From Tardiphaga sp. (lineage in GTDB: Bacteria; Pseudomonadota; Alphaproteobacteria; Rhizobiales; Xanthobacteraceae): a DNA stretch of 64,000 bases. Positions 17,181 to 27,773 of the stretch are shown piece after piece. The translations under genes and the position numbers were made by a program. How positions within the stretch are numbered: position 1 is the stretch's first letter; every line of letters begins with the position of its first letter. The notes beneath the pieces are model-generated. The model was not told where the DNA came from. It ran no database searches and saw only the letters and a program-made list of their open reading frames with translations. The stretch spans positions 2,631 through 66,630 of the forward strand of contig NZ_JANXTC010000393.1 of the NCBI RefSeq assembly GCF_025356345.1, in the 5' to 3' direction.

Positions 17181-18872
17181 CTACGCCGACCTTACCGAGT
17201 TGAGGAATTTGCCGACCTCCACCTTCAGCCGGTTACTGTCCGACGAAAGCGATCGCGCGGCGGAAAACACCTGCGACGACGCCGAGCCAGTGGCGCTGGC
17301 GCCGCGCTGCACGTCGGTGATGTTCGACGAAACCTGCATGGTGCCCTGCGCGGCCAGCTGCACGTTGCGGGAGATTTCCTGCGTGGCGGCGCCCTGCTCC
17401 TCCACCGCCGAGGCGATGGTCGAGGCGATCTCCGACATCCGGCCGATGGTGTCGCTGATCTCGCGGATCGCGCCGACAGAATCCTGCGTCGCCGCCTGGA
17501 TGCCGGAAATCTGCGCCGAAATTTCGCCGGTCGCCTTGGCGGTCTGCTCGGCCAGCGCCTTCACTTCGGAGGCGACCACCGCGAAACCGCGACCGGCCTC
17601 GCCGGCCCGCGCCGCCTCGATCGTGGCGTTCAGCGCCAGCAGATTGGTCTGCCCGGCGATGGTATTGATCAGTTCGACGACATCGCCGATCCGCGACGCC
17701 GCCTGGGCTAGTTCGCCAACACGGTCGTTGGTTTTGCGCGCCTGATCGACGGCCTGGTTGGCGATCGTGGAAGATTCCTGCACCTGGCGGCTGATCTCGT
17801 TCACCGAGGAGGCCATTTCCTCGGTAGCCGAAGCGACCGATTGTACGTTGGTCGAGGCGGCCTCGGAAGCCGTGGCGACCAGCGTGGCCAGCTGCTGCGC
17901 ACGTTCCGCCGTGGCCGTGAGCGTCCCCGCGGATGCCTCGAGTTCAATGGAAGAGGAGGACACGGTGTCGACGATCTCGCCGATCTTCGCCTCGAAATCC
18001 CGGGTGATGCCATCGACGCGACGGCCGCGTTCAATCTTGCTGTCGGCCTCGGCCATCGCGGCTTCATCCGCCACCTTCTTGTCGATCAGCGCCTGCTTGA
18101 AAATCTGCAGCGCATCGCCCATCGAACCGATCTCGGTCTTCATGCCCTGATGCGGCACCATCGCGGTCAGATCGCCGGCGCCCAGCGCCTGCATCGGCGT
18201 GACGATCGAGGCGATGCCGCGCGAGACGTCGCGGACCAGGTAAATGCCGATGCCGATGCCAAGCACCGCTGCGACTCCGAGCAGGCCGGTCAGCATGACA
18301 AATGCCGTGCGGTAATTTTCGGAAGCGATGCGTCCGGCGGCGTCAGCCGCCTTGTTGATGAGTGCGATGTCCATTTCGAGGATTGCATCGGCCGCCTTGC
18401 CGATATCATTGACGGTCGTCTGGTTCAGCACCTGGGCATCACGGATGCTTTTATCAATGCTGTTGCGGGACATGACCAGCACCTGCTCCGCGCTCTTCAT
18501 GTACTCGGCCCACTTGTCGCGCCAGCCATTGTAGATCCCGCGTTCCTCGGCCGAATTGATCAGGCTCTCATACGTTGCGCGCAGGGTCGCCTCCTCGTTG
18601 ATGGTGGCGATCAACCTCTTTTCCATCGCCTCCTTCTCGGCGGCGGTATCGCCCAGCATGTGGGCCCGTACCGTGGTCCGGTAGGTGATGGTGTTGGCCT
18701 TCAGCGCTCCCAGGACCCGGACGCTCGGCAACCAGCGGCTGCTCAGTTCGGTGGCGCTGGCATCGATCATCTGCATTCTGCCGACGGCCAACAGAACCAT
18801 CCCGGTCATGGCCAGCAATAGAACAGCGATGACGCTCGAGATCTTGGCGCGAATGGAAAGGCTGGCGAACAT
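17181..18872 (-). CDS. Methyl-accepting chemotaxis protein (array MCP3), four-helix-bundle sensor
   Basis: LSIRAKI...[11 protein letters not shown] pattern typical of 4HB MCP sensors, HAMP, conserved tip. Confidence 0.95.
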
Positions 18873-19131
18873 ATCAATCCCTCAATCGGGGTGTCGGGCA
18901 CGTGGCACGACGAAAATCGGTGTTTGACGGCTAAATCGCCGTGGCGTCATACAGAAATCAACAGTCGAAAACGGATCTCGACATCAACGTCGCGTCCACA
19001 GCATGGTGGTATTTGGTTAAGAAGCAGTTCCGCATGTTTAGAGCATCGGCCTTTGCTTGCTCGATGCCCCTTTCTTCCACCATTCGAGGGCGCGCGGCCG
19101 GCAAGGCCGACCCGACGCCGGCCACGGAAGC

Positions 19132-19556
19132 TAGAGCGGGATGGCTTTATAATAATTCGTATCACTGGCCCCGTCATTGCGAGTTCGGTACCGGCCTTTG
19201 GCCGATCCTGAGATATGAAAGATAGGGTTCGTGTCCCGGACGCGGTGCGGCATTCTCAGGCGATGCCCTTGCATCGCCGCCATGCCGCTCCGCAGAGCCG
19301 GGACCTTATCAGGCAACGACGTTTTTGGCGGTCCCGGCTCTGCGGCGCATGACGCCTCCTGCGGAGGCGCATTGCGCCGCGTCCGGGACAAGTGCCCTTT
19401 CTTCCGAGGAGCGCTTGCGACGAAGCAATCCAGTCTTCTTGCTTGTGGCATGCTGGATTGCCGCGTCGCTTCGCCAAGGGGAAAGCCAATGAGCTTTCCC
19501 TGACCTCGCAATCACGGGGCAGAAGTTGCGAACCAGATTAAACGCTTCCGGCTCTA
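19132..19556. mobile_element. Composite nested palindromic MITE/REP-like element
   Basis: TA-bounded. Left end TAGAGCGGGATG-N25-CCCCGTCATTGCGAG (19132-19183); right end CTCGCAATCACGGGG-N25-CTTCCGGCTCTA (19505-19556). Several internal hairpins. No transposase ORF. Confidence 0.65.
19231..19390. repeat. Inner inverted-repeat element nested in the composite element
   Basis: Termini TGTCCCGGACGCGG (19232-19245) / CCGCGTCCGGGACA (19377-19390); inner arms CCGCAGAGCCGGGACC / GGTCCCGGCTCTGCGG; small hairpin GCGCATGACGCCTCC-TGC-GGAGGCGCATTGCGC. Confidence 0.75.
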
Positions 19557-21247
19557 AGCCGCCCGTACCGACCGCAGAAATTTTCCGACTTCGGCCTTCA
19601 GGCGGCCGCTGTCGGATGACAGCGACTGCGCGGCGGAGAACACCTGCGACGACGCCGAGCCGGTCTCGCTGGCGCCGCGCTGCACGTCGGTGATGTTCGA
19701 CGAAACCTGCATGGTGCCCTGCGCGGCGAGCTGCACGTTGCGGGAGATTTCCTGCGTGGCGGCGCCCTGCTCCTGCACCGCCGAGGCGATGGTCGAGGCG
19801 ATCTCCGACATCCGGCCGATCGTGTCGCCGATCTCCCGGATCGCGCCGACAGAATCCTGCGTCGCCGCCTGGATGCCCGAGATTTGCGTCGAGATTTCAC
19901 CGGTCGCCTTGGCCGTCTGCTCGGCCAGCGCCTTTACTTCCGACGCCACGACCGCGAAGCCTCGGCCGGCCTCGCCGGCGCGGGCCGCCTCGATCGTGGC
20001 GTTCAGCGCCAGCAGATTGGTATGCCGGCGATGGTGTTGATCAATTCGACCACGTCGCCGATCCGCGCCGCGGCTTTCGCCAATTCAGCCACACGATCAT
20101 TGGTCTTGCGCGCCTGATCAACCGCCTGACCAGCGATAATCGAGGATTCCCGCACCTGACGGCTGATCTCGTTCACCGAAGAGGCCATTTCCTCGGTGGC
20201 CGAGGCGACCGACTGAACATTGGTCGAGGCGGCCTCGGAAGCCGCGGCGACCATCGTTGTGAGTTGCTGCGCGCGCTCGGCTGTCGCCGTCAGCGTGCCG
20301 GCCGATGCCTCCAGCTCGGTCGAGGCGGACGACACGGTATTGACGATATCGCCAATCGTCGCCTCGAAATCACGGGTGATGCCATCGACGCGGCGGCCAC
20401 GCTCGATCTTGGCACTGGCATCGACCATGGCGGTTTCATCCGCCGCCTTCTTGTCGATCAGCGCCTGCTTGAAGATTTGCAGCGCGTCGCCCATCGCGCC
20501 GATTTCGGTCTTGACGCCCTGGTGCGGCACCACCGCGGTGAGATCGCCGGCGCCCAGCGCCTGCATCGGCCGGATGATGGAATTGATCCCGCTCGACACG
20601 TCGCGCACAAGATAGACGGCAAGGCCGATGCCCAGCACGGCCGAAAGGCCCAGCAGCGTCGTCAGCATCATCAACGCCGACTCATACTCCGCCGCGGCCG
20701 CCGCGCCGGCGGTGTCGGCGCCCTTGTTGTTGAGGTCGATATCCTTGTCGAGCAGACGGTCCGACAACTGACCCATCGGAATAACCTTGGTCTCGTTCAG
20801 ATCCTGGGCGTCCTGCGGAAACCGGCCGACGCTCTGGTTGGACAATGCCAGAATTTCCAGTGACGCTATCTTGTAGACGTCCCATCGCCGCGCCCATTCG
20901 TCGTAAATCGACCGTTCCTCCGGCGACGAAATCAGTTTTTCATAGCGCGTGCGAAAGTTCGTCAAATTGGCGACGAAGGTCGCCAGCCGTCGTTCCGCGT
21001 CCGCCTTGGCCTCGGCCTTGGGCGACAACAGGTGACCGCGAATGACGTTGCGGTAGGAAGCAACGCTGCCACGCATCTCCCCCAATATGCGGACGCTCGG
21101 TAACCAGCTGGCCTGGATTTCAGCCGCATGCGCATTGATCGCATGCAGGTTGCGAATGGCCAGAAAACCCATGACCGACATCGCGAGCAGCAGGAAAGAA
21201 ACGACACTGATAATCTTGGTTCGGATCGAAAGGCTGGCAAGCATCAT
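19554..21247 (-). pseudogene. Frameshifted chemoreceptor (array MCP4), 4HB sensor; pseudogene or assembly error
   Basis: ORF 20003..21247 derails after INTIAG and ORF 19554..19949 carries the rest. At 20021-20027 the gene reads GCC GGC ATA CC AAT where paralogs read GCC GGG/GGC CAG ACC AAT, i.e. one base is missing. Confidence 0.8.
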
Positions 21248-27680: not shown

Positions 27681-27773
27681 CCAGAGCGGGATGACCTCAA
27701 GATGAATCGGTGTCCCATCCCCCGTCATTGCGAGGTCAGTGATTTGGACTAAACTAAAGTCATCCCGCTCTGG
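27681..27773. repeat. Short member of the same composite repeat family
   Basis: Perfect 15-bp terminal inverted repeat CCAGAGCGGGATGAC / GTCATCCCGCTCTGG enclosing CCCCCGTCATTGCGAGGTCAG. Confidence 0.7.

Follow-up and report, generated by a model that had tools for sequence, protein, structure and literature searches.

Between two chemoreceptor genes of a Tardiphaga metagenome-assembled genome (MAG) lies a 425-bp DNA element whose inverted repeats are set one inside another, and the question raised by this locus is how such a Russian-doll symmetry was built. The window that we analysed is a stretch of 64,000 nt from contig C33 of this genome (5.3 Mb in 432 contigs, 94% complete); the element occupies positions 19132-19556, in the spacer between the genes that we call MCP4 and MCP3. 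We conclude, with a probability of roughly 0.78, that it is a miniature inverted-repeat transposable element (MITE), now decayed, that belongs to an insertion sequence (IS) of the IS630 family and carries a dimer of repetitive extragenic palindromic (REP) sequences and further repeats inside it.

The locus was first described from its letters alone, and our re-reading reproduced that description of its ends (hereafter the sequence-only reading) exactly to the base, in box sequences, positions, mismatch counts and spacer lengths. On the left, an outer box TAGAGCGGGATG (19132-19143) is separated by 25 nt from an inner box CCCCGTCATTGCGAG (19169-19183); on the right, the inner box CTCGCAATCACGGGG (19505-19519) and the outer box CTTCCGGCTCTA (19545-19556) are likewise 25 nt apart. 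Between left and right there are two mismatches in the 12-nt outer boxes and one in the 15-nt inner boxes; of the 25 spacer positions, 12 are identical by hand count. Repeat analysis also found the whole of the reported interior, namely a 160-bp palindrome (19231-19390), which falls within an inverted repeat with arms at 19219-19248 and 19374-19403 (repeat I1), and two small hairpins, one formed by GCAATCCAG and CTGGATTGC (repeat I5) and the other by GGGGAAAGC and GCTTTCCCC. The 425 nt fold end to end at -242 kcal/mol (z = -12.8); an Rfam scan of positions 18000-21000 returned just sub-threshold chance matches, such as mir-3155 and the PA5194 thermometer. The symmetry comprises three layers, which are IS630-type arms, a REP dimer and inserts in the REP loops, and it is the nesting of these loop inserts within a dimer that itself lies between arms that gives the locus its Russian-doll appearance.

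The bipartite end is a recurrent feature of this genome. The search pattern put forward in the sequence-only reading matches the window twice (at 19133 and 27683; 0.00 matches expected from 100 shuffles), and the same strict pattern matches 14 exact sites genome-wide, with none for a reversed control pattern; a looser search recovers 42 arms in which the inner box lies 33-46 nt from the terminus, mostly 37-39 nt. The further copies that it had proposed to look for therefore exist, and their recurrence, with none in the controls, argues that the symmetry is not a product of chance. When the 425 bp were compared with their own genome by BLAST, the 364 matches fell into 291 clusters with a modular coverage of the query: about 10 matches to the bipartite end (query positions 1-52), about 20 to positions 38 to ~278, about 35 full copies and additional half copies of the 160-bp palindrome, about 190 matches to the GCAATCCAG hairpin (positions 271-343) and about 50 to the GGGGAAAGC hairpin. 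This search found no second full-length copy of the 425-bp element in the genome. A 421-bp interval on another contig (C408:4829-5249) has the same arm-to-arm layout, with query positions 3-330 matched at 90%, and seven further contigs carry the bipartite end with the hairpin immediately behind it and the mirrored end after that.

These copies define a standard element of 175-206 bp, composed of an arm, a REP dimer and a second arm, in which each arm is 35-37 nt long. Its left half reads C^TA-GAGC(A/G)(T/G)GATGAC (the caret marks a boundary), about 23 nt of arm, CCCCGTCATTGCGAG, GAGCCCTTGCGACGAAGCAATCCAG and a loop, and its right half reads CTGGATTGCCGCGTCGCTTCGC, CTCGCAATGACGGGG, about 24 nt of arm and GTCATCATGCTC-TA^G. 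In an alignment of eight family copies with their flanks, homology stops exactly at the TA on both sides and the flanks are unrelated to one another; four copies of 175 bp (C137, C187, C314 and C174) are 94-99% identical among themselves. The family is thus small, non-coding and present in many copies, as MITEs are, and the 425-bp element contains no transposase gene. We regard the 425-bp copy as an older relative of the 175-bp standard element that has extra repeats in both of its REP loops.

The arms fall into three sequence types, an L type (TTTATGTTAGTTCAAATCACT), an R type (CTAAAGATGAATCGGTGTCCCATC) and a third type (GATTTCAAGTTGGTTCGCAACTTCC), and the 425-bp copy has an L-type arm on its left and an arm of the third type on its right. 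This changes the meaning of the spacers, which had been taken to have a fixed length of 25 nt and to form the gap between two binding boxes. The distance from terminus to box varies across the family, as given above, and what fills it is conserved arm sequence, the length of which differs by type; the two 25-nt spacers of the 425-bp copy are arm sequences inherited by descent, from two conserved types that are here of near-equal length.

The copy structure bears directly on whether the element ever moved as a unit. A different origin would be a mosaic REP cluster of the type known as bacterial interspersed mosaic elements (BIMEs) or Rhizobium-specific intergenic mosaic elements (RIMEs), put together by local recombination and gene conversion between CGTC-tagged REPs and other palindromes, in which the arms are unrelated solo IS ends and the 425-bp unit never moved whole. 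Palindromic units do occur here in variable combinations with other motifs in intergenic DNA, so that the fit to BIMEs and RIMEs is good at the level of description, and the single 425-bp copy, the many combinations of modules among the 291 clusters, the presence of an arm at just 35 of 415 inner boxes and at just 5 of ~21 copies bearing the internal block, and the different types of its own two arms would all be expected of a mosaic. What a mosaic does not predict is the signature of whole-unit copying seen in the standard copies, with both arms at a constant distance, sharp TA...TA boundaries, near-identical sequence and unrelated flanks, nor the arm-to-arm layout shared with C408:4829-5249 over 421 bp. 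The difference between the two arms also loses its force, since in the 175-bp subfamily the L-type arm is always paired with an R-type arm and mixed arm types are therefore the norm of the family. The sequence-only reading had offered a mosaic of short palindromic units as its second option; as an account of the interior this was correct, while the identity of whole units and the sharp TA boundaries of the sister copies are left unexplained by it. We consider a mosaic origin for the complete element unlikely.

The outer box connects the arms to an IS. IS630-family elements prefer CTAG as a target and duplicate its TA. In the same assembly, IS630-family ends of the form TA^GAGCG(G/T)GATGA are found at six contig-end junctions, each a terminus without an inner box that lies 137-141 bp from the end of its contig and points outward. 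The four left-end junctions carry TAGAGCGGGATGATGTTTGGCTGAATCG..., starting TAGAGCGGGATGATG..., and run into an open reading frame (ORF) beginning MARPLSMDLRERAIA; the two right-end junctions read as the reverse complement of ...LRKAAERSVEATWKRIGALLSDFSPKECANYLVNSGYAST with its stop codon (...NSGYAST-stop) followed by ...GTCATCACGCTCTA. At these six junctions the assembler broke on a multi-copy IS, four times at its left end and twice at its right. A DNA search across the family identified a full-length relative of 1053 bp in Rhodopseudomonas palustris BisB18 (G050, C1:2535504-2536556), flanked by CTAG on both sides, with the ends TAGAGCGGGATGATG... and, as reverse complement, TAGAGCATGATGAT..., which match the Tardiphaga junctions at 95% and 85% identity, respectively. 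The left end keeps its 95% identity across two hosts of different genera. The BisB18 element encodes a helix-turn-helix (HTH) ORF and a DDE_3 ORF (E = 6.5e-36), with an A8 slippery run at their overlap, and also matches HTH_Tnp_IS630; homologues on Bradyrhizobium plasmids are annotated as 'IS630 family transposase', and relatives of the IS are present in 57 of 300 other genomes sampled.

The MITE termini TAGAGCGGGATGA and TAGAGCATGATGA are identical to the left and right termini of this IS at 13 of 13 positions, TA included, and the two terminus variants found among MITE copies, GGGATGA and CATGATGA, are the two termini of the IS. The 425-bp copy agrees with them at 12 of 13 positions on its left and 10 of 13 on its right. 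The inverted repeats of the family therefore match those of an autonomous IS630-family element, and the suggestion that an IS630/Tc1-like transposase might be found between the same ends was borne out, through the six junctions together with the full-length relative with its HTH and DDE_3 ORFs. An attempt to assign the L and R arms to the right and left ends of the IS gave a result that is no more than suggestive. On contig C417, one TA serves both a MITE end and an IS end (GCTC-TA-GAGC), which fits the recreation of the preferred CTAG target by an element end followed by TA and G.

The inner box has a different source. The genome contains 415 copies of the box CGTCATTGCGAG at up to one mismatch; an IS-like terminus lies within 50 nt of just 35 of them and 92% have no arm, and the only other conservation upstream of the 415 boxes is a C-rich stretch. 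We had considered the inner box as a second binding site for the transposase and rejected it, since the box overwhelmingly occurs without arms. The idea of two protein-binding boxes per end accordingly did not hold: the inner box is the tag and stem of a REP. CGTC-tagged REPs are defined by an unpaired CGTC, a stem starting with AT and a CCA tail, and occur mostly as inverted dimers (Di Nocera, De Gregorio, Rocco, 2013; PMC3733652). In the 425-bp element, the left monomer begins with CGTC-ATTGCGAG (19172-19183) and ends with GAAGCAAT-CCA (19422-19432), and the right monomer mirrors it, so that unpaired tag, AT-starting stem and CCA tail are all in place; high copy number and a predominance of inverted dimers are likewise found (415 boxes, ~190 matches to the dimer core), and the GCAATCCAG hairpin is the REP dimer itself. 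This class is characterised by 8-9-bp stems and 4-5-nt loops, which the present repeat does not have: perfect pairing is confined to ATTGC and GCAAT, and the 'loop' has a minimum of 19 nt, reaching 225 nt or more in the left monomer of the 425-bp copy. The repeat is a variant CGTC REP, not a textbook member. REPs with the CGTC tag were described from Bradyrhizobium and R. palustris, with atypically long and variable loops in the CGTC-1 group of Bradyrhizobium (PMC3733652). Dimers without arms also occur in other Tardiphaga species, including one in genome G005 at the position orthologous to the C314 copy. The B. japonicum repeats Br-REP1 and Br-REP2 differ from it in sequence, and a full-text literature search with the repeat sequences returned nothing relevant. 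Palindromes of the form GTTCCGGGTTCGC...GCCCCGGAACGAC, which resemble Br-REP2, do adjoin MITE copies at C174:~690-740 and C417:~330-380; they represent another repeat family in the same intergenic niches.

The identity of this REP also bears on which kind of transposase might have been involved. A dimer of REPs able to form a long hairpin, within a 425-nt fold as stable as the one described above, recalls the REP doublets (REPINs) mobilised by REP-associated tyrosine transposases (RAYTs) of the IS200/IS605 type, and the sequence-only reading had named a RAYT-like enzyme among its candidates; under this explanation such an enzyme, or another single-strand transposase that recognises hairpins, would have moved the element, and its TA flanks would be incidental. 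REPs of the GTAG type are indeed tied to RAYTs (PMC3733652). The REP at this locus is CGTC-tagged, and in the same survey no tyrosine transposase gene was flanked by CGTC REPs, for which it reports no dedicated transposase and only fortuitous association with transposase genes (PMC3733652). A search for Y1_Tnp (PF01797) gave no matches in the 94%-complete assembly, against matches in 6 of 14 control genomes, and a RAYT would leave both the IS630-identical termini and the C^TA...TA^G flanks unexplained. We judge this explanation very improbable, and nothing in these data supports the RAYT proposal.

The innermost layer consists of repeats that sit in the loops of the two REP monomers. Standard copies read CATTGCGAG^GAGCCC at the left loop, with no block, and the 425-bp copy reads CATTGCGAG^TTCGG...(225 bp)...CCGAG^GAGCGC; as the block is absent at this junction in the standard copies, it sits within the left REP loop, and the GAG repeat that flanks it may be a 3-bp duplication. 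About 21 loci contain the 225-bp block in the same context, and arms are present at just 5 of them. Its largest part, the 160-bp palindrome, which we term the C element, has 19 near-full copies in the genome, of which about 8 stand alone with unrelated flanks. In the right loop, the 30-bp hairpin of the 425-bp copy is shared with the copies on C158 and C238 and is absent from the 175-bp subfamily. Overall, these data support the sequence-only reading in its proposal that the element is non-autonomous, flanked by TA and host to other repeats. As a separate observation, the C element is a repeat family of its own (TGTCCCGGACG...CGTCCGGGACA), and at C268:6777 and on C397 it is preceded by a terminus resembling TAGAGCGGGAT, so that it too may ride on IS630-type ends.

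TA flanks both ends of the 425-bp copy, as it does 31 of the 42 arms of the family, and C precedes the TA in 24 of 30 of those by hand count. Many of these targets are stop codons: for 14 of the 42 arms, an upstream frame of 100 codons or more ends in the flanking TAG, compared with 2 and 8 in the two control frames, which makes landing on stop codons, as the sequence-only reading had anticipated, a trait of the family. Comparison with the minus-strand ORF verified that the right TA of the 425-bp copy belongs to such a codon, the CTA at 19554-19556 being the TAG stop of the chemoreceptor MCP4; this end constitutes a fifteenth case, having escaped the search through its decayed terminus. The predicted empty site (...GAAGC-TA-AGCC...) would likewise end MCP4 with TAG, so that the insertion would have preserved the stop.

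The position of the element immediately downstream of MCP4 raises the possibility of a host function, as a transcription attenuator, as a stabiliser of the 3' end of MCP4 mRNA or as an outward promoter for MCP3, any of which would be compatible with a MITE origin. An extremely stable structure does lie directly 3' of the stop codon, the MCP4-MCP3 spacer (681 bp) is longer than the neighbouring spacers (100-394 bp), and a passage of PMC5082802 cites REPs of E. coli 3' untranslated regions with such roles. The AT-rich left arm further contains a sigma-70-like match (ATGACG-17-TATTAT, minus strand, 19177-19149) facing MCP3, a single match against 0.2 expected from shuffles; this is a bare consensus match. 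The hairpins are not followed by a terminator-like run of T, the sole terminator-like match in the spacer (18982-18964) lies outside the element, and the locus is not conserved in relatives. A selected role at this site seems improbable.

A number of observations weigh against the IS630 MITE interpretation. An exact empty site was not found: the left flank (18873-19131) has no counterpart, and no orthologous spacer, in 40 relatives, and exact empty-site 29-34-mers had 0 matches in metagenome contigs. A DDE_3 (PF13358) search of the MAG was negative despite the IS junctions, and the assembly lacks the IS body, which would have to be unassembled or unbinned; we infer a working transposase in this cell from the junctions only. 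Past the first 13-14 nt, the resemblance of arms to the IS is weak, with 10-13 of 24 positions identical and shuffle p values of ~0.007-0.04 for the best pairs, and that of the right arm of the 425-bp copy to the subterminal IS sequence is not significant by shuffling; within the 10 nt that follow the TA, the right terminus of this copy (GAGCCGGAAG) is mismatched at 2 positions. Finally, the arms are joined to several REP variants and most REP dimers are armless, and the arms and the REP core may have separate histories.

We queried 33 Tardiphaga species with a chimeric sequence representing 11 predicted empty sites, which gave mostly matches to the coding flanks and a single clear case of presence against absence. 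The copy on C238 is absent from the orthologous spacer of genome G020, which is ~200 bp shorter; at ~75% identity, the junction is too diverged to be read. In genome G041, the 3' end of an MCP gene can be aligned across the junction predicted for the 425-bp element (74% identity), no more than a suggestive match. None of 32 other Tardiphaga species has the strict pattern, and a looser one (GAGCNNGATG-N22-30-CGTCATTGCGAG) has matches in 18 of the 400 other genomes searched in the family; these 18 represent 12 further genera and contain up to 11 matches each, with 0 matches for the reversed control in every genome. The outside cases that we inspected consist of an arm, a REP dimer and a second arm; their flanks are TA or near-TA, and the arms are recognisably related.

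Taking the IS630 MITE interpretation as the framework, the formation of the locus can be described as follows. Each end is a 35-37-nt arm that starts with the IS terminus GAGCG(G/T)GATGA beside a TA, and the space between the arms is filled by a head-out CGTC-REP dimer, supplying both the apparent inner boxes and the GCAATCCAG hairpin. Full-length copies of the IS at other places in the genome would supply an IS630 transposase, which would bind the arms, excise the element and paste it into a TA, preferably within CTAG, with duplication of the TA. In this GC-rich genome, TA is frequent in TAG and TAA stop codons, and the first base of the element, a G, rebuilds TAG, so that insertions exactly at gene ends would be tolerated. 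At some stage each REP monomer would have gained a repeat in its loop, the 225-bp block on the left and the 30-bp hairpin on the right. The 425-bp copy itself is probably immobile, given its decayed right terminus, and would act at most as a large RNA or DNA hairpin between MCP4 and MCP3.

The features of the locus are collected in Table 1, in window coordinates except for the IS junctions, which are numbered on their own contigs of the same assembly (G000).

Table 1. Components of the 425-bp element and associated features.
Feature	Position	Strand	Remarks
Left flanking TA	19132-19133		Within CTAG 19131-19134; presumed left copy of the TA target-site duplication
Left arm, L-type, 35 nt, GAGCGGGATGGCTTTATAATAATTCGTATCACTGG	19134-19168	+	First 11 nt match the IS630-family terminus
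Left inner box, CCCCGTCATTGCGAG	19169-19183	+	CGTC tag and AT-starting stem of the left REP monomer
Internal block, 225 bp, in loop of left REP monomer	19184-19408		B segment, C element and tail
B segment, 47 nt	19184-19230		Part of the 225-bp block
C element, 160-bp palindrome	19231-19390		Part of the 225-bp block
Tail, 18 nt	19391-19408		Part of the 225-bp block; ends in GAG
REP dimer core: GAGCGCTTGCGACGAAGCAATCCAG, 19-nt loop, CTGGATTGCCGCGTCGCTTCGC	19409-19474		~190 genomic matches; repeat I5
GGGGAAAGC/GCTTTCCCC hairpin module, 30 bp, in loop of right REP monomer	19475-19504		Mirrors the position of the left block; ~50 genomic matches
Right inner box, CTCGCAATCACGGGG, head of right REP monomer	19505-19519	-	1 mismatch to the left box
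Right arm, third type, 35 nt, reverse complement GAGCCGGAAGCGTTTAATCTGGTTCGCAACTTCTG	19520-19554	-	Decayed terminus; resembles arms at C173, C215, C8, C80 and C108
Right flanking TA	19555-19556		With C19554 makes the MCP4 TAG stop (minus strand)
MCP4, 4HB-type chemoreceptor	19554-21247	-	Split as assembled by a 1-nt deletion near 20046-20050
Mini element, 91 bp: R-type arm, single CGTC box, L-type arm	27682-27772		Outer TA pair now CA/TG
IS junction contig ends	C82:1939-2079; C416:2417-2555; C332:1-139; C417:1-139; C180:10161-10300; C186:1-137		Four left ends, two right ends

Two observations concern smaller and compound members of the family. The mini element of the window has a sister of similar build at C171:10265-10350; both contain the two arm types and one CGTC box in 86-91 bp, and in the window copy the change of the outer TA/TA to CA/TG is a complementary pair. 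At C137:26809-27060, a 175-bp MITE has inserted at a CTAG within the arm of a mini-type element, providing a second case of nesting among members of this family. With respect to the neighbouring gene, the deletion in MCP4 falls in a G run (GCCGG-CATACC, against GCCGGGCAGACC in MCP3; window 20040-20055) that encodes the conserved hairpin tip, and yields two ORFs, 20003-21247 and 19554-20084; the split is either a pseudogene or a consensus error of the MAG among near-identical paralogues. The relatives of MCP4 are found in Tardiphaga species, the best matches to its sensor domain having ~70% amino-acid identity, and the loci of these sensor-domain relatives contain scattered REP cores and no arms.

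The 425-bp element adds a new and unnamed member to a well-known class, the IS630-derived MITEs. Within this class, the RUP elements of Streptococcus pneumoniae are linked to IS630-Spn1, and the Correia elements of Neisseria are flanked by TA. Like them, the Tardiphaga element is short and non-coding, with IS630-type inverted ends and TA flanks, occurs in many copies, often at gene ends, and can form long hairpins. It differs from both in having as its core a dimer of an independent and far more abundant CGTC REP, in its unequal arms, which come in three types, in the additional repeats lodged in the REP loops and in the absence of the autonomous IS body from the MAG. The BIMEs of E. coli and the RIMEs of Rhizobium, likened here by description, are similarly intergenic mosaics in which palindromic units and short motifs are joined in variable order; they are not known to have the transposase-type terminal inverted repeats and TA flanks of the Tardiphaga element. 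The IS630-family ISs of rhizobia and Rhodopseudomonas share with it an identical terminal 13 nt including TA, the same CTAG/TA target and, through the junctions, the same genome, whereas the 425-bp element has no transposase gene and clearly shares the outer 13-14 nt alone, the subterminal similarity being weak.

On the side of the REPs, the CGTC-1 group of Bradyrhizobium and Rhodopseudomonas likewise combines CGTC with ATTGC...GCAAT and CCA, forms inverted dimers, reaches hundreds of copies and has long loops (PMC3733652); what distinguishes the Tardiphaga genome from that survey is the 8% of boxes that are bracketed by IS630-type ends. The nearest described analogues are the REP dimers of Anabaena variabilis and Halothiobacillus neapolitanus, which are embedded in larger palindromes (PMC3733652).

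The locus is a clean example of how nested palindromes arise in IS630-type MITEs and how such elements build up on stop codons. A cargo of REP dimers that has no known transposase is a mild twist on otherwise ordinary selfish DNA. The repeats also explain much of the fragmentation of the MAG, whose contigs break ~140 bp inside the IS, and the locus serves as a warning that symmetric boxes of this kind should not be read as regulatory protein-binding sites of a chemoreceptor array.

The finding may have a wider meaning for the CGTC REPs. As a tentative extension, which we hold possible with most of the weight still against it, the IS630-family transposases of the Nitrobacteraceae could be the vehicle for these orphan repeats, with a MITE lineage that carries REP dimers and their loop cargo to TA sites at gene ends in 13 genera, and with armless dimers being in part decayed descendants or re-seeded at the box of a mini element. 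The IS630 enzyme would then be a first candidate transposase for the CGTC REP family. The subset of REPs bracketed by IS630-type ends, with its near-identical copies and the matching IS junctions, offers a testable route by which CGTC REPs could spread.

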